Shown here piece after piece: positions 13,491 to 39,480 of a stretch of DNA of 64,000 nucleotides. The position numbers were made by a program, and so were the translations under genes. The stretch comes from Escherichia coli. GTDB lineage: Bacteria; Pseudomonadota; Gammaproteobacteria; Enterobacterales; Enterobacteriaceae. Every line of letters begins with the position of its first letter. Within the stretch, counting starts at the first letter, position 1. The stretch lies in NCBI RefSeq assembly GCF_041886205.1, contig NZ_CP169029.1. One strand, written 5' to 3'. The notes below the pieces were generated by a model that was not told where the DNA came from, did not search any database, and saw only the letters and a program-made list of their open reading frames with translations.

Positions 13491-14790
13491 ACTGCTTTAA
13501 CGCCGCATACACCTGATCAACCACCCAACCATAAGTTGCAATCGGCAGCTGACCGCTTACGAACATATTGGGATTTTTTTGTGGATCGGCAACTGGCGAA
13601 TGTGGCTTGTTGCTTAACATCACAATCGCCATATGATTCACCGGATCGATAACGGTCACCGTTCCAGTCCAGCCAGTGTGACCGTAGGTTTGCGGGCTTG
13701 CCAGCGTGCCAAACGTCGGCGTCATGGTGGCATTACCATTCACGCGCCAGCCGAGGCCAAAAGTGGCGTCTTCCTTAGAGCTGGTGGTGAACATCTTCAC
13801 CGTTTCCGCACTGAACAACTGCACATCGCCATAGCCGCCGCCGTTCAGCATCGTTTGCATTAACACCGCAATATCGCCGGTATTGGAAAACAAACCTGCG
13901 TGCCCGGAAACACCGCCCATCGAATAAAAGGCTTTTTCATCGTGCACCTGACCCCAGAGAGTTGAGGTGCGGATATTCGGGAAGTGGATCACGCCATCGC
14001 GGGTATTGCCGTTCAGTTCCGTAGCAGCGATTTGCTGCGGTTTAAAGCCTTTCAGCAGCGGATTAAACACCGTATGCGTCAGACCGAGCGGGCGATAAAT
14101 CGACTCTTCAACATAGCGGTCAAGCGGCTGACCGGTGACCGACTCGACGATAAATCCAAGCAGCATATAATCGACATCGCTGTAGATATGCTTGCTGCCG
14201 GGCTGATACTCCAGCGGCGTGCGCTTGATCATCTCCAGCGTCTGGCCTTTATCCTGGGAATATAACGCGCCCGCGACCGCTTTATTCGGATATTGTGGGT
14301 CCGCCGGGAAACCGCCGCTGTGATGCAGCAGGTCAGAAATCCGCAGGGTGTTTTTGCCTTTGATGGTGTCATTTGGACTATCGGCAAATCCCGGAATATA
14401 TTTCGCAATCCGATCGTCAGGATGCAGCTTGCCTTCGCTCATTAGCTTTTGCAGAGCAAAGTTTGTGGCGTACATCTTGGTATTGGAAGCCAGGTCATAC
14501 AGCGTCCCGGTGGTGGCTTTGACAGGCTGTTCCATCAATACGCTGCCATCGTACTTTTTCGCCGCTCCCCAGGCTTTGCGATACACAATCTGATTATCTT
14601 TTATAATCAGCAGGTTTACGCCGGGATAACCGGCGTCCACTTGCTGGCTAATCCAGCGATCCATCTGGTTAAGCCGTTCGACGTTGAACCCTGCTTTCTC
14701 TGGCGAACTTTCTGTCAGAACAGGGAATTTTGCGGCGCTGACGCTACAACTAACAGCCAGCAGAGAAAGATAGAGCATTGTCCGTTTCAT
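13489..14790 (-). CDS. yfeW: Penicillin-binding protein 4B (class C beta-lactamase fold) YfeW
   Basis: ORF track 13489..14877; start moved to the ATG encoding MKRTMLYLSLLAV (signal peptide); SxxK motif present (SNTK). Confidence 0.8.
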   Translation of the reverse strand: MKRTMLYLSLLAVSCSVSAAKFPVLTESSPEKAGFNVERLNQMDRWISQQVDAGYPGVNLLIIKDNQIVYRKAWGAAKKYDGSVLMEQPVKATTGTLYDLASNTKMYATNFALQKLMSEGKLHPDDRIAKYIPGFADSPNDTIKGKNTLRISDLLHHSGGFPADPQYPNKAVAGALYSQDKGQTLEMIKRTPLEYQPGSKHIYSDVDYMLLGFIVESVTGQPLDRYVEESIYRPLGLTHTVFNPLLKGFKPQQIAATELNGNTRDGVIHFPNIRTSTLWGQVHDEKAFYSMGGVSGHAGLFSNTGDIAVLMQTMLNGGGYGDVQLFSAETVKMFTTSSKEDATFGLGWRVNGNATMTPTFGTLASPQTYGHTGWTGTVTVIDPVNHMAIVMLSNKPHSPVADPQKNPNMFVSGQLPIATYGWVVDQVYAALKQ

Positions 14791-23162: not shown

Positions 23163-24074
23163 GTGAGTACATTAGAACAAACAATAGGCAATACGCCTCT
23201 GGTAAAGTTGCAGCGAATGGGGCCGAATAACGGCAGTGAAGTGTGGTTGAAACTGGAAGGCAATAACCCGGCAGGTTCGGTGAAAGATCGTGCGGCACTT
23301 TCGATGATCGTCGAGGCGGAAAAGCGCGGGGAAATTAAACCGGGTAATGTGTTAATCGAAGCCACCAGTGGTAACACCGGCATTGCGCTGGCAATGATTG
23401 CCGCGCTTAAAGGCTATCGCATGAAATTGCTGATGCCCGACAACATGAGCCAGGAACGCCGTGCGGCGATGCGTGCTTATGGTGCGGAACTGATTCTTGT
23501 CACCAAAGAGCAGGGCATGGAAGGTGCGCGCGATCTGGCGCTGGAGATGGCGAATCGTGGTGAAGGAAAGCTGCTCGATCAGTTCAATAATCCCGATAAC
23601 CCTTACGCCCATTACACCACCACCGGGCCGGAAATCTGGCAGCAGACTGGCGGGCGCATTACCCATTTTGTCTCCAGCATGGGAACAACCGGCACTATCA
23701 CCGGCGTGTCACGCTTTATGCGCGAACAATCCAAACCGGTGACCATTGTTGGCCTGCAGCCGGAAGAAGGCAGCAGTATTCCGGGCATTCGCCGCTGGCC
23801 TGCGGAATATCTGCCGGGGATTTTCAATGCTTCTCTGGTGGATGAGGTGCTGGATATTCATCAGCGCGATGCGGAAAACACCATGCGCGAACTGGCTGTG
23901 CGGGAAGGAATATTCTGTGGCGTCAGCTCCGGCGGCGCGGTTGCCGGAGCACTGCGGGTGGCAAAAGCTAACCCTGGTGCGGTGGTGGTAGCGATCATCT
24001 GCGATCGTGGCGATCGCTACCTTTCCACCGGGGTGTTTGGGGAAGAGCATTTTAGTCAGGGGGCGGGGATTTAA
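23163..24074 (+). CDS. cysM: Cysteine synthase B (O-acetylserine sulfhydrylase B) CysM
   Basis: ORF track 23085..24074; GTG at 23163 gives 303 aa starting (V)STLEQTIGNTPLVKL; PLP-enzyme motifs. Confidence 0.9.
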   Translation: MSTLEQTIGNTPLVKLQRMGPNNGSEVWLKLEGNNPAGSVKDRAALSMIVEAEKRGEIKPGNVLIEATSGNTGIALAMIAALKGYRMKLLMPDNMSQERRAAMRAYGAELILVTKEQGMEGARDLALEMANRGEGKLLDQFNNPDNPYAHYTTTGPEIWQQTGGRITHFVSSMGTTGTITGVSRFMREQSKPVTIVGLQPEEGSSIPGIRRWPAEYLPGIFNASLVDEVLDIHQRDAENTMRELAVREGIFCGVSSGGAVAGALRVAKANPGAVVVAIICDRGDRYLSTGVFGEEHFSQGAGI

Positions 24075-33846: not shown

Positions 33847-34841
33847 GCTTTATCGGCGCTGCTTTCCTGCTGCGCCTGTAACTGTTCGGTCTGGCGTTTA
33901 TATCGACGCGCCAGCACCGCACAGACCATCAATTGGATCTGATGGAAAATCATCAGGGGCAGCACCATCATACCGATCACCGATGTGGGGAACAGAATGT
34001 TTGCCATCGGGATGCCATTTGCCAGACTCTTTTTCGAACCACAAAAGACGATAGTAATTTCATCTGCTTTATTGAAGCCCAGTCGGCGTGCCATAAAGAC
34101 GTTAACTACAATCACGATAGCCAGAAGAACGCAGCTGACCACCACGATAAACAGCAATGATCCCCAGCCAACTTTATGCCAGATACCATTAACGACGGCT
34201 TCGCTGAACGCTGTATAAACCACCAACAGAATGGACGTCTGGTCAGTTTTCGCAATCCATTTTTTATTGCGCGACACCCAGTCACCAATCCACGGCCGGG
34301 AAAGATGCCCCAACACAAACGGCAGCAGCAGTTGCAGCATAATTTTACCGACCTGCTCAAGGCTGCCCCCTGCACCGTGAACATTCATCACCAGACCAAC
34401 CAGCAATGGTGAAAGGAAAATCCCCAGCAGGCTGGATGCTGACGCAGAACAAACCGCCGCCGCGACGTTACCGCCCGCCATTGACGTGAAGGCGATTGCA
34501 GACTGCACGGTAGCCGGGAGAATGCACAAGTAGAGAAAACCGGAGTAGAGCATCGGGTCGACATTTACCGGTTTCCACCAGGCAAACAGTACACCCAGAA
34601 TCGGAAACAGCACGAAGGTGCTGCACATTACCCACAAATGCAGTCGCCAGTGACCACCGCCAGCAATAATCGCCTCACGCGACAACTTCGCGCCGTGCAT
34701 AAAGAACAGCAGGGCAATAGCTGCGGTGGTCAGATTTTCAAAGAAGGGGACGAAATCGCCTCTGGCCGGAAAGAAAGAGGCCAGCAACACCACCGTGATC
34801 AGGGTTAAGGTGAAAGGATCGAGGATACGAAAAAGTTTCAT
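33843..34841 (-). CDS. yfeH: Bile acid:sodium symporter-family membrane transporter YfeH
   Basis: 332 aa; polytopic; 3' end overlaps ypeB by 4 nt (convergent). Confidence 0.8.
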   Translation of the reverse strand: MKLFRILDPFTLTLITVVLLASFFPARGDFVPFFENLTTAAIALLFFMHGAKLSREAIIAGGGHWRLHLWVMCSTFVLFPILGVLFAWWKPVNVDPMLYSGFLYLCILPATVQSAIAFTSMAGGNVAAAVCSASASSLLGIFLSPLLVGLVMNVHGAGGSLEQVGKIMLQLLLPFVLGHLSRPWIGDWVSRNKKWIAKTDQTSILLVVYTAFSEAVVNGIWHKVGWGSLLFIVVVSCVLLAIVIVVNVFMARRLGFNKADEITIVFCGSKKSLANGIPMANILFPTSVIGMMVLPLMIFHQIQLMVCAVLARRYKRQTEQLQAQQESSADKA

Positions 34842-34930
34842 AAAGACTCCAGATGATCGATGGTTCTATTGTGCTTCTTCCAGTTTGAGAAATAAAATTG
34901 ATTTATTGCATCCATTCATGAAGAAAACAG

Positions 34931-35857
34931 ATGAATTATTCTTTAAAACAATTAAAGGTTTTCGTCACAGTAGCGCAGGAGAAAAGTTTTAGTCGTGCAG
35001 GAGAGCGTATCGGCTTGAGCCAGTCGGCAGTAAGTCACAGTGTGAAGGAGCTGGAAAATCATACTGGTGTTCGCCTGCTGGACAGAACCACGCGTGAAGT
35101 GGTGCTTACAGATGCAGGGCAGCAGTTGGCTTTGCGTCTTGAGCGACTGCTGGATGAACTTAACAGCACGTTGCGCGATACCGGGCGTATGGGGCAACAA
35201 CTGAGCGGAAAAGTTCGGGTCGCTGCCAGCCAGACCATTTCCGCGCATCTTATTCCGCAATGCATTGCTGAAAGCCATCGCCGCTATCCAGATATTCAGT
35301 TTGTCCTGCACGATCGTCCGCAGCAGTGGGTGATGGAAAGTATTCGCCAGGGAGATGTCGACTTTGGCATCGTCATCGATCCAGGCCCAGTGGGCGATCT
35401 GCAATGTGAAGCGATTCTTTCCGAGCCTTTCTTTCTGCTTTGCCATCGCGATAGCGCTTTGGCCGTGGAAGATTATGTACCCTGGCAGGCATTGCAGGGA
35501 GCGAAATTGGTGTTGCAGGATTACGCGTCAGGCAGCCGACCGCTGATTGACGCAGCGCTGGCGCGCAATGGTATTCAGGCGAATATTGTGCAGGAGATTG
35601 GACATCCGGCGACGCTGTTCCCGATGGTAGCCGCAGGCATCGGCATCAGTATTCTTCCCGCACTGGCGCTACCATTGCCTGAAGGTAGCCCACTGGTGGT
35701 AAAGCGCATTACGCCGGTTGTTGAACGCCAGTTGATGCTGGTGCGCAGGAAGAACCGTTCACTTTCCACCGCCGCTGAAGCGTTATGGGACGTGGTACGA
35801 GACCAGGGCAATGCGCTAATGGCTGGTCGGGAAGGGGATCCGTTGTATCAGATATAG
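34931..35857 (+). CDS. yfeR: LysR-family transcriptional regulator YfeR
   Basis: 308 aa; N-terminal LysR HTH. Confidence 0.82.
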
Positions 35858-36189
35858 ATATCGATATGAGTCGTTTTTTCAACAGGATTTAGAAGGGATA
35901 CATTCAGAGACAAACGCTGCTCTTTCTCCTGCGCCTTTTCTGCCTGCTGTTTCTGCAACTGCGCCAGTTGTGTTTCCAGTAGGGTGATTTGCTGTTGAAT
36001 CAATTCGGCCTGTTTTTGCTTGTCTTCAGCACTGCCGCTAGTGTCTACAATCTCTTTAATTTGTTGAGTGAGTTTGATGATTTGCTGACTTATCCGCGCG
36101 ATTTGTGAAGCAACATCGCTACCTTGTGATGCCCTGTTACTACTCTGTGTTTGTATGGAAGGAATTGAAGTTGAAGAGATAGTGGCCAT
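35848..36189 (-). CDS. FlxA-like small glutamine-rich coiled-coil protein (hypothetical)
   Basis: 113-aa ORF with GAGGA SD 7 nt upstream of ATG; Q/K/L/I-rich heptad pattern resembling FlxA-family proteins; sigma-28-like promoter upstream; 3' end overlaps yfeR by 10 nt. Confidence 0.55.
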
Positions 36190-36217
36190 TGTTCAGTCCT
36201 CGTCACTGTACGAGGTA

Positions 36218-36244
36218 ATATCGGTAGAAGAACAAGGAACTTGA
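36218..36244 (-). promoter_or_regulatory. Putative sigma-28 (FliA) promoter for the FlxA-like ORF: TCAAGTTC-N11-ACCGATAT
   Basis: 6/8 and 6/8 matches to TAAAGTTT-N11-GCCGATAA with the correct 11-nt spacer, about 30 nt upstream of the ATG. Confidence 0.35.
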
Positions 36245-36269
36245 GAAGAAAAATCAATCTTACAAATCG

Positions 36270-36308
36270 CAGATAGCAAAAAAGCGCCTTTAGGGCGCTT
36301 TTTTACAT
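36270..36308. terminator. Bidirectional intrinsic terminator ending the tRNA operon
   Basis: Hairpin GCGCC-TTTA-GGGCGC flanked by A6 and T6 immediately 3' of tRNA-Lys. Confidence 0.7.
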
Positions 36309-36384
36309 TGGTGGGTCGTGCAGGATTCGAACCTGCGACCAATTGATTAAAAGTCAACTGCTCTACCAACTGAGCTAACGACCC
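36309..36384 (-). tRNA. lysV: tRNA-Lys (anticodon UUU)
   Basis: 76-nt match to the tRNA-Lys sequence, including CCA. Confidence 0.95.

Positions 36385-39404: not shown

Positions 39405-39480
<76 letters not shown>

Follow-up and report, generated by a model that had tools for sequence, protein, structure and literature searches.

The minus-strand open reading frame at 35848-36189 of the window (the whole 64-kb stretch of E. coli DNA analysed here) in all likelihood encodes a working protein of the FlxA family (PF14282), orthologous to genes kept in synteny between lysV and yfeR and expressed through FliA (sigma-28) together with the flagellar programme. On sequence comparison, the ORF was confirmed as a real small gene of this known family. 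The reading proposed in the initial annotation is a correct account of a known kind of gene, and all that it says about the sequence itself proved true.

The coordinates of the features are presented in Table 1. The interval between the end of yfeR and the start of tRNA-Lys(UUU) is 451 bp long and contains only one substantial ORF, which is in agreement with the small gap of about 450 bp and the single 113-aa minus-strand ORF described initially. The Rfam search of the interval resulted in tRNAs only. The hairpin terminating the tRNA operon is common to both E. coli haplotypes, being identical in the xap-type strain, and its folding energy was determined to be -19.1 kcal/mol (z = -5.9) on the minus strand and -16.3 kcal/mol (z = -3.2) on the plus strand.

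Table 1. Features of the yfeR-lysV interval and its flanks in the window.
Feature	Position	Strand	Basis or remark
yfeR, LysR-family regulator, left flank	34931..35857	+	ORF coordinates and annotation
FlxA-like CDS, 113 aa + stop	35848..36189	-	ORF list, Pfam, RefSeq, AlphaFold model, dN/dS
Convergent 3'-end overlap of the FlxA-like ORF and yfeR, 10 bp	35848..35857		
Haplotype-specific segment, 404 bp, ORF and promoter	35859..36262		Boundary alignments
A6/T6 homopolymer near the ORF 3' end	35874..35879		P0001 and P0002 compared with the window sequence
Shine-Dalgarno GAGG	36198..36201	-	Direct reading; 8 nt upstream of ATG 36189-36187
Inverted repeat CCTCGT-ACAGTG-ACGAGG	36198..36215	-	3' arm covers the Shine-Dalgarno; 5' arm at about -5 to +1
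Predicted sigma-28 start, +1 at about 36210	36209..36211	-	Inferred; leader of about 21 nt
FliA-type promoter	36217..36244	-	-35 TCAAGTTC 36244-36237; 11-nt spacer 36236-36226; -10 ACCGATAT 36225-36218
Bidirectional (symmetrical) terminator hairpin A6-GCGCC...GGCGC-T6 of the valU-valX-valY-lysV tRNA operon	36276..36306		
tRNA-Lys(UUU) lysV, right flank, last gene of the tRNA operon	36309..36384	-	

The product was matched to the Pfam FlxA family (PF14282) at residues 15-92 with 51.5 bits (E=1.2e-13), compared to the gathering cutoff of 26.3, and to K-12 FlxA with 42% identity over 74 aa (BLASTP, E 1e-11). The M(T/S)xI start, two helices and the (I/V)D(I/V)Y(I/V) C-terminus are common to both proteins. 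The C-terminal IDIY(I/V) tail was found, along with the common architecture, in 21 FlxA family members and in 61 of the 62 homologous loci, and the ORFs in these 62 loci are intact. The window protein contains 20 Gln (17.7%) and the peptides quoted in the initial annotation, whose assignment of a Q-rich, FlxA-like product was upheld by the PF14282 score, the homology with K-12 FlxA and the common tail. A word-indexed protein search gave 7 matches only, and an exhaustive phmmer search was required to see the FlxA-like family. For the locus scan, a 7-sequence alignment was suitable and a 21-sequence alignment was too divergent. No NCBIfam family was above the cutoff with the window protein, and exact-sequence cluster look-ups returned nothing.

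The gene is already family-named in public databases. RefSeq WP_000201413.1, a 'FlxA-like family protein', lies on DNA 100% identical to the window, and among 60 listed records of genomes with the segment, 59 annotate a FlxA-like protein. The suggestion that the gene is absent from the reference annotation needs correction: K-12 is without the gene because the corresponding DNA is missing there, and RefSeq annotates it in the roughly 1300 genomes that possess it. Among the papers searched, neither the chromosomal FlxA-like gene nor the xap/flxA-like polymorphism was treated.

The promoter was scored with a matrix built from 52 published FliA ChIP-seq sites (PMC4183435) in a full and a spacer-neutral version. 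The motif that had been read upstream of the ORF, TCAAGTTC-N11-ACCGATAT, reached 16.4-16.9 bits, which is mid-range among the true sites, and with 16.4 bits it outranked fliC, trg, aer and ycgR as scored in the leave-one-out test. With the spacer-neutral matrix it was the best FliA site of the 64-kb window on both strands, and of the shuffled 64-kb windows only 10% contained a site of at least 16.9 bits; with the full matrix it was outscored by another window site, 14404-14377, and the K-12 ChIP-seq table (PMC4183435) has no FliA site in the K-12 region estimated to match the window. The matrix scores by themselves are fallible. The cross-genus comparison strongly supports the reading of the motif as a sigma-28 promoter. 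The motif is situated 27 nt upstream of the ATG in the window, and of the 62 homologous loci, which come from about 20 Enterobacteriaceae genera, 60 have a site scoring 12 bits or more 25-33 nt before the ATG, against a chance expectation of about 0.005 per locus upstream window. The pattern retained in these 60 loci is TCAAG...-N11-GCCGATA. The E. coli alleles examined do not vary in the -35 box or in the spacer, and their -10 boxes differ at the first base only, A replacing the consensus G in the window and B-strain alleles, while the surrounding intergenic DNA varies. Both the arrangement of a class 3 promoter (-35 TAAAGTTT and -10 GCCGATAA-like boxes separated by an 11-nt spacer just upstream of a gene) and a phylogenetic footprint among the orthologues were thus observed.

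The FliA dependence of the window gene is inferred from these comparisons. The K-12 datasets cannot contain the gene because K-12 lacks this DNA. The K-12 flxA gene is FliA-bound and FliA-dependent, its expression decreasing from 280 to 2 in the fliA deletion (PMC4183435). In sigma-28 open-complex structures the -10 octamer is placed at -15 to -8 relative to the start (PMC12784957). According to the proposed mechanism, FliA-RNA polymerase would recognise TCAAGTTC-N11-ACCGATAT and start near 36210, producing a transcript with a leader of about 21 nt and a free GAGG Shine-Dalgarno. A purine-rich Shine-Dalgarno is found in the equivalent position in the orthologues. With a FliA-driven start, synthesis of the protein would coincide with the expression of the late (class 3) genes for flagella and chemotaxis, only after the release of FliA by FlgM.

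The 404-bp flxA-like cassette was detected at full length, with alleles 97-100% identical, in 1307 of 5426 complete E. coli genomes, O157:H7, O121 and the B lineage being among the carriers; part of the fli region is missing from the B lineage. The yfeR-yfeN junction of the xap form was present in 4074 genomes (75%). The two forms are mutually exclusive and jointly account for 99% of the genomes. In K-12-type strains, about 4.4 kb comprising yfeN-xapA-xapB-DUF1427-xapR occupies exactly the position of the cassette. Both the strain variability of the site and the presence of K-12 xapRBA-yfeN there, described initially as a cluster of about 4.5 kb, were verified by these genome counts and the boundary alignments, respectively. 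The usual gene order across the homologous loci is lysV-[xapRBA/yfeN optional]-flxA-like-yfeR. The flxA-like gene occupies the equivalent site in about 20 Enterobacteriaceae genera, and in some other genera xap/yfeN and the flxA-like gene are found side by side. The best 120 matches of a YfeR homologue search did not reach the yfeR loci of Salmonella or of the non-flagellate Klebsiella. Judged from this synteny, the flxA-like gene is an old syntenic chromosomal gene of enterics which is missing from most E. coli. Both E. coli forms would then be alternative deletion or recombination derivatives of an ancestral lysV-xapRBA-yfeN-flxA-like-yfeR arrangement and not products of a tRNA insertion. 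The lysV-yfeR interval provides a clean two-state E. coli marker, carrying either the flxA-like cassette or the xanthosine-utilisation genes with yfeN. Since the window haplotype is devoid of xapABR at the locus, this xanthosine-utilisation pathway is probably missing from it.

The dN/dS values of the ORF between genera, 0.06-0.18, show purifying selection. The changes within E. coli were mostly non-synonymous (2N:0S, 3N:0S, 5N:3S, 7N:4S), giving a dN/dS of about 0.5 on very few changes, and these counts are too small for significance. Disrupted copies exist as well, including an IS1203 insertion and frameshifted pseudogenes. Taken together with the absence of the gene from 75% of the genomes, the non-synonymous changes and the disrupted copies indicate that the selection in E. 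coli may be weak. The flxA-like gene of E. coli could accordingly be a real but decaying, dispensable remnant, FliA-wired by descent, contributing nothing and heading for loss, which is considered unlikely. Besides the absence from 4074 of the 5426 genomes, this explanation is favoured by the G to A change in the -10 box, by the D to G substitution in the conserved tail of O157:H7 and by variants in which one A fewer in the homopolymer near the ORF 3' end results in 159-aa products reading antisense into yfeR (P0001, P0002). However, the segment is retained at full length across diverged alleles in 1307 genomes, with the FlxA-like annotation in nearly all of the records listed, the -35 box and spacer do not vary among the E. 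coli alleles examined, all five E. coli alleles aligned have an intact ORF, and the purifying selection in other genera is strong. A functional, FliA-expressed gene is the preferred reading.

An explanation with a still lower probability is that the promoter mainly yields antisense RNA, the FliA transcript extending into yfeR and the yfeR mRNA running across the ORF to the lysV terminator. The expression of yfeR/yfeH would in this case be inversely coupled to the flagellar programme in an excludon-like manner, and the protein could still be made. The two genes overlap by 10 bp at their 3' ends, their convergent pairing persists at most of the 62 loci, and transcripts of yfeR would next meet a terminator at the symmetrical lysV hairpin. 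A simple scan of 34700-36320 found no intrinsic terminator between the 3' ends of the ORF and yfeR or shortly past them, but it also missed the obvious lysV hairpin, and therefore its negative results are weak. In addition, the purifying selection on the ORF acts at the protein level, the terminal motifs are conserved, and the ORF and yfeR are apart, or yfeR is absent, in the loci L035, L040, L045 and L046. These observations speak against antisense RNA as the main output.

It is also very improbable that the sigma-28-like motif is unused and the ORF is expressed by read-through from the strongly transcribed valU-lysV tRNA operon or from an unrecognised promoter, with the hairpin at the Shine-Dalgarno setting the translation. 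The ORF is on the same strand as the tRNA operon, only about 85 nt downstream of its terminator, formation of the hairpin CCTCGT/ACGAGG would require a transcript begun upstream of the sigma-28 start, and many FliA-like motifs of K-12 are unproductive (PMC4183435). However, the terminator of the tRNA operon is strong (z = -5.9), no sigma-70-like promoter was found in the yfeR-lysV interval, and the motif keeps its fixed distance in 60 of 62 loci, including genera with an opposite-strand xapA upstream instead of tRNAs. The hairpin is not conserved family-wide either.

The initial annotation had placed the Shine-Dalgarno in the 3' arm of this small hairpin, which proved right. The inverted repeat folds as a 6-bp hairpin of -8.6 kcal/mol with z = -0.86 compared to shuffles, and it is hence energetically ordinary. 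It is kept in E. coli and Pseudocitrobacter. No covariation was detected across the family (57 distinct leaders; permutation 1947/5000), and the family-wide energies of own-paired and cross-paired arms were similar, -4.03 and -3.97 kcal/mol, respectively. With the start predicted 8 nt past the -10 octamer (PMC12784957), the +1 falls on the last base of the 5' arm. A conserved translational control element was rejected on the basis of the ordinary energy, the lack of covariation and the start at the end of the 5' arm, and the hairpin is probably immaterial to the sigma-28 transcript. As a secondary possibility, the anti-Shine-Dalgarno arm just 5' of the start could limit translation to FliA-initiated transcripts in E. 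coli and its closest relatives, excluding tRNA-operon read-through.

The least probable origin, a small island gained by horizontal transfer or a remnant of a phage beside tRNA-Lys, comparable to the Qin prophage carrying K-12 flxA, is largely refuted: the segment is strain-variable and adjoins a tRNA, K-12 flxA is prophage-borne (PHROG 11044), and the cassette is very similar in E. coli and one Pseudocitrobacter MAG (dS 0.10 compared to 0.7-1.2 for the flanking genes), but the variable segment is only 404 bp, begins past the tRNA terminator and not within the tRNA, contains no integrase ORF or att-like direct repeats that could be found, and has its equivalent in the equivalent place in about 20 genera. 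A prophage-borne FlxA was rejected in parallel due to the chromosomal housekeeping context, the weak match to PHROG 11044 (E 2.4e-7 vs 1.8e-71 for K-12 FlxA) and the lack of a homologue in a tblastn search of 50,697 phage records.

The AlphaFold model of the protein has a disordered Ser/Thr-rich N-terminus (residues 1-21), a helix (22-49), a turn, a second helix (54 to about 95) and the IDIYI tail. The pLDDT values were 75-87 in the helices and below 50 for residues 1-21, and both termini are predicted to be disordered. The first 22 residues across the orthologues contain 46% Ser+Thr and 3.6% charged residues; the N-terminus resembles flagellar type III export signals in composition only, being predicted disordered, Ser/Thr-rich and uncharged. 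The PDB profile search resulted in designed or generic coiled coils only, and Foldseek gave nothing below E = 0.24 against the PDB. The type III stalk protein CdsO was dismissed as a structural relative, as a Foldseek E-value of 0.65 is meaningless for a simple helical hairpin.

As the searches yielded no relative, by structure or by sequence, whose function is known, the functional reading is conjecture. The predicted product combines a Ser/Thr-rich N-terminus, which is disordered and uncharged, with an antiparallel helical hairpin and a conserved hydrophobic (I/V)D(I/V)Y(I/V) tail. By analogy with K-12 FlxA, it would probably serve the flagellar programme as a non-essential accessory factor, which is a speculative assignment. 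Docking on a partner via the C-terminal strand, or export via the flagellar type III apparatus using the N-terminus, is the preferred guess, speculative as well and of low probability. The same low likelihood applies to the wider proposal that the chromosomal FlxA-like protein is an unrecognised, widely conserved late flagellar product with a real job, either as an exported small protein or as an adaptor docking on a flagellar or chemotaxis component by the (I/V)D(I/V)Y(I/V) strand. K-12 FlxA is FliA-dependent but is not known to take any obvious part in flagellar synthesis or motility. A job of the chromosomal protein would have been overlooked because K-12 is without the chromosomal gene and its prophage paralogue flxA is without a known motility role.

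The practical weight of the finding is small, the gene being family-named in RefSeq and the FlxA-FliA link being known since the work on K-12 flxA. The flagellar regulon as known from K-12 does not represent the species in full, as about a quarter of E. coli and many enteric genera have an extra, apparently FliA-wired gene. Within the family it is the chromosomal copy, and not the prophage copy studied in K-12, that is conserved, and the chromosomal copy therefore offers a better handle on the function of FlxA proteins.

In comparison with strain-variable tRNA-adjacent islands, the locus is similar in its presence or absence next to a tRNA and in its catabolic alternative (xapABR and yfeN). 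In contrast to such islands, it has no integrase or att repeats, its junction is past the tRNA terminator and its two forms are mutually exclusive, a pattern in keeping with alternative deletions or with the replacement of one allele by another through homologous recombination.

The window site shares the 8-nt boxes and the 11-nt gap of the class 3 FliA promoters of flgKL, modA, ycgR and fliD. Its -35 box, TCAAGTTC, resembles those of flgKL (TCAAGTCC) and modA (TCAACTTC), and its -10 box, ACCGATAT, those of ycgR/fliD (ACCGATAA) and modA (GCCGATAT). Its score is within the range of FliA-bound sites, with two mismatches to the class 3 consensus in each box. Unlike the class 3 flagellar genes, the gene downstream is without a known flagellar role.

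The closest known system is K-12 FlxA (b1566, Qin cryptic prophage, PHROG 11044), which belongs to the same Pfam family (PF14282) and has a similar length (110 vs 113 aa). Both proteins have a disordered N-terminus, two Gln-rich helices and the C-terminal IDIY(V/I) tail, and both genes are immediately preceded by a sigma-28 motif and have a short leader, the distance between the motif and the ATG being 22 nt in K-12 flxA and 27 nt in the window. However, the proteins are only 42% identical over the 74 aligned residues. K-12 flxA is a prophage cargo, at least 99% identical wherever present (1169 of 5426 genomes), whereas the window gene is chromosomal, occupies a fixed site with alleles 97-100% identical and has orthologues in about 20 genera.

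The interval between yfeR and lysV was found to contain a conserved coding gene of the FlxA family, preceded at a fixed distance by a sigma-28-type promoter and situated at a conserved chromosomal site. The gene order of the window, cysZ-zipA-ligA-ypeB-yfeH-yfeR, lysV-valY-valX-valU, gltX, yfeD and yfeC, is that of the E. coli chromosome, and the 451-bp interval holds a single substantial ORF. The initial annotation described the sequence of this interval accurately in every detail, and the peptides quoted there were located within the ORF. Its interpretation, a FlxA-like gene with a sigma-28-like promoter, was supported with three corrections, which concern the annotation status, insertion at the tRNA and the hairpin at the SD.

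Features of the yfeR-lysV interval (window coordinates)
Feature	Position	Strand	Description
yfeR	end 35857		
flxA-like ORF	35848..36189	-	113 aa, 20 Gln
Haplotype-specific segment	35859-36262		404 bp, from alignment with a K-12-type strain
ATG of flxA-like ORF	36189-36187	-	preceded by ACTGAACA
Inverted repeat CCTCGT-ACAGTG-ACGAGG	36215-36198	-	SD GAGG within 3' arm
Promoter -10	36225-36218	-	ACCGATAT, then TA before the inverted repeat
Promoter -35	36244-36237	-	TCAAGTTC, then 11-nt spacer
tRNA operon terminator	36276-36306	both	symmetrical A6-stem-T6, strong in either orientation (z = -5.9, z = -3.2)
tRNA-Lys(UUU) lysV	start 36309		

The ORF and yfeR are convergent with a 10-bp overlap. No terminator was detected between them with a weak scanner, and mutual antisense transcription is a possibility. 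Elsewhere in the window, the tRNA-Ala(GGC) gene is present in a single copy (39405-39480). In strains 6EVA (L001 9706-9896) and AR24.2b (L003), alaX and alaW form an identical tandem pair separated by 115 bp; it looks as if one copy was lost from the window through recombination between the repeats.

Membership in the FlxA family was confirmed by a match to Pfam PF14282 (E = 1.2e-13; score 51.5 bits, gathering threshold 26.3); no NCBIfam model matched the 113-aa protein above cutoff. The identity with K-12 FlxA (b1566) was 42% across 74 residues (E = 1e-11), and outside this local alignment both proteins share a C-terminal IDIY(I/V) tail. Identical DNA is annotated in RefSeq as 'FlxA-like family protein' (WP_000201413.1). 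The ORF is strain-variable, as had been proposed, and RefSeq annotates it wherever it is present. When 1.84 billion representatives were searched exhaustively with phmmer, 76 relatives were obtained at E <= 1e-3, mostly of 100-125 residues, and scanning GTDB r220 with a single genome for each species gave 62 homologous loci. The family proteins start with M-T-T-I-type residues, followed by about 20 Ser/Thr/Gly-rich residues with hardly any charge (Ser+Thr 46% and charged 3.6% in the first 22). Helix 1 (ASQI..I..QI.KLTQQLK), a short turn (G-S-x-E-E-K), helix 2 (QELIQ.QI.MLQAQLAQLQRQQAE) and a variable linker precede the C-terminal (I/V)D(I/V)Y(I/V), which was present in 61 of the 62 loci. The AlphaFold2 model, based on a 75-sequence alignment, comprised helices 22-49 and 54-100 (pLDDT 75-87) and disordered termini; a PDB profile search and Foldseek with the window protein retrieved generic helical hairpins only.

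Several further features were observed within the ORF. A 17-nt direct repeat (35978-35994 and 36071-36087, 82% identity) encodes the cores of both helices, QQIIKLT and QQITLLE, which hints that the helical hairpin derives from an internal duplication. In O157:H7 F6321 (L069 140-481), compared with window 35848-35880, the conserved IDIYI was changed to IGIYI and a nearby K to N. A homopolymer occupies 35874-35879 (T6 on the + strand, A6 in the ORF). The 159-aa protein versions in public assemblies (P0001, P0002) correspond to the loss of one A from it, and their frame runs on antisense across the yfeR 3' end, where it is open in the window too (ORF 35709..35882). These versions may be true slippage variants or homopolymer sequencing errors.

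The promoter was scored with a FliA position matrix built on 52 FliA ChIP-seq motifs (Table 2 of Fitzgerald et al. 2014, PMC4183435). The determined score of 16.4 bits was mid-range among bound sites scored leave-one-out and exceeded those of fliC, trg, aer, ycgR and fliL. When flxA was left out of the training set and the spacer columns were made neutral, the promoter was the top site on both strands of the 64 kb (16.9 bits, runner-up 14.75); a site of at least 16.9 bits occurred anywhere in 10% of shuffled windows. Two other sites, at 14377-14404 (-) and 23203-23230 (+), reached 17.6 and 15.9 bits under the full matrix, and 14.2 and 14.75 bits under the spacer-neutral one. The FliA ChIP-seq table published for K-12 (PMC4183435) lists nothing in the K-12 interval estimated to match the window, and the matrix score by itself over-predicts sites. 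No sigma-70-like promoter was detected in the yfeR-lysV interval.

The decisive evidence for the predicted sigma-28 promoter beyond a chance match is its comparative conservation. The ORFs were intact in all 62 loci (106-118 codons), which include Pseudocitrobacter, Kluyvera, Citrobacter, Pluralibacter, Enterobacter, Lelliottia, Leclercia, Buttiauxella, Yokenella, Trabulsiella, Atlantibacter, Siccibacter, Silvania, Cedecea and others. When the best matrix match within 150 nt upstream of the ATG was taken per locus, a TCAAG...-N11-GCCGATA(A/T/C) site of 12-21.6 bits was found 25-33 nt from the ATG in 60 of them; from the background frequency in the same loci, 0.005 sites scoring 12 bits or more would be expected per upstream window. 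The two loci that departed from this were a homologue from Burkholderiaceae and one whose box is deviant. Neither the -35 box nor the spacer varied among five diverged E. coli alleles, in contrast to the intergenic DNA nearby, and two Pseudocitrobacter sequences had the same -35 box. The first -10 base, 36225 (compared in L069-L072, L007 and L008), is A in the window and E. coli B alleles, and the consensus G in O157:H7, SCU-102, EC1, both Pseudocitrobacter and nearly all other loci; the A may slightly weaken the promoter in the window and B lineage.

The SD does lie in the 3' arm of a hairpin, as had been noted, whose 6-bp stem is retained in both E. coli and Pseudocitrobacter; the one change in it, C to U, leaves the pairing intact. 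Three findings speak against a regulatory role. The leader folded no better than shuffles (z = -0.86), and in a set of 57 distinct leaders the sequence following the -10 paired with its own SD region at -4.03 kcal/mol compared with -3.97 kcal/mol for the SD regions of other loci (1947 of 5000 permutations equally good), with no covarying pairing. The recurrent complementarity is explained by a pyrimidine-rich tract opposite a purine-rich SD. In sigma-28 open complexes the -10 octamer is at -15 to -8 (PMC12784957), and therefore the predicted +1 is at about 36210, the final base of the 5' arm, so that a FliA-initiated mRNA would be without this anti-SD sequence. Only RNAs begun upstream, for example by read-through of the tRNA operon, could form the hairpin; a role in such RNAs is not supported by these results, and the hairpin is probably irrelevant.

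Alignment of the interval, proposed in the initial annotation, fixed the boundaries of the xap indel: the shared flanks are the yfeR stop codon and, on the other side, 36263 through the lysV terminator. The expected K-12-type alternative was found at the same site as about 4.4 kb with yfeN, xapA, xapB, a DUF1427 ORF and xapR. Among 5426 complete E. coli genomes, 1307 had the flxA-like segment (single copy, chromosomal, 97-100% identical) and 4074 the yfeR-yfeN junction; the two forms make up 99% of the genomes and seem to exclude each other. Among the strains with the segment are the B lineage, O157:H7 and O121:H19. A few copies are frameshifted or interrupted by IS1203, which splits the ORF in CUVET18-1475 (L002 6587-8241). 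HH45 (L004 5634-7023) has a frameshifted pseudogene, separated from lysV by about 1.1 kb without annotation that contains a second, 68% identical cassette match. The site is tRNA-adjacent and strain-variable, as stated earlier; insertion at the tRNA did not hold, and a tRNA island was ruled out, since the segment had no integrase or att-like repeats and no homologues were found among 50,697 phage records.

Other genera carry the homologue at the same site, convergent with yfeR. It adjoins xapR-xapB-xapA in Citrobacter, Enterobacter and Atlantibacter, and yfeN in one Buttiauxella. The fullest order is lysV-xapRBA-yfeN-flxA-like-yfeR, from which each E. coli haplotype could be derived by a single deletion or allelic replacement. 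The dN/dS between genera was 0.06-0.18, indicating purifying selection; the few differences among E. coli alleles are mainly non-synonymous, which fits a dispensable gene. The dS of the ORF between E. coli and an uncultured Pseudocitrobacter MAG (L007 756-1097) was only 0.10, compared with 0.73 for yfeR, 1.23 for yfeH and 0.96 for ligA on the same contig, which suggests a recent inter-genus cassette exchange or a chimeric contig. For yfeR, dS was about 0.75 between E. coli and Pseudocitrobacter and > 1.9 with other genera; gltX, ligA and yfeH were roughly equidistant.

The K-12 flxA promoter (TAAAGATT-N11-GCCGATAG, 22 nt before the ATG) has the layout of the window gene; FliA binds there, and deletion of fliA lowers flxA expression from 280 to 2 (PMC4183435). 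Because of this and the conserved promoter, the window gene is very likely FliA-dependent. FliA-RNAP would transcribe it from about 36210 with a leader of about 21 nt and an accessible SD, and the protein would be synthesized alongside late flagellar and chemotaxis genes, after FlgM export. The uncharged, Ser/Thr-rich disordered N-terminus appears to resemble type III export signals in composition, and the C-terminal tail, hydrophobic and invariant, has the look of a docking strand; that the protein serves the flagellar programme as an accessory factor, either exported or binding a partner, is a speculative and rather unlikely proposal. K-12 FlxA is the closest relative, with family and promoter logic in common. 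K-12 FlxA is carried by a prophage (PHROG 11044) and shows at least 99% identity across 1169 carrier genomes; the window gene, unlike it, is an ancient chromosomal form.
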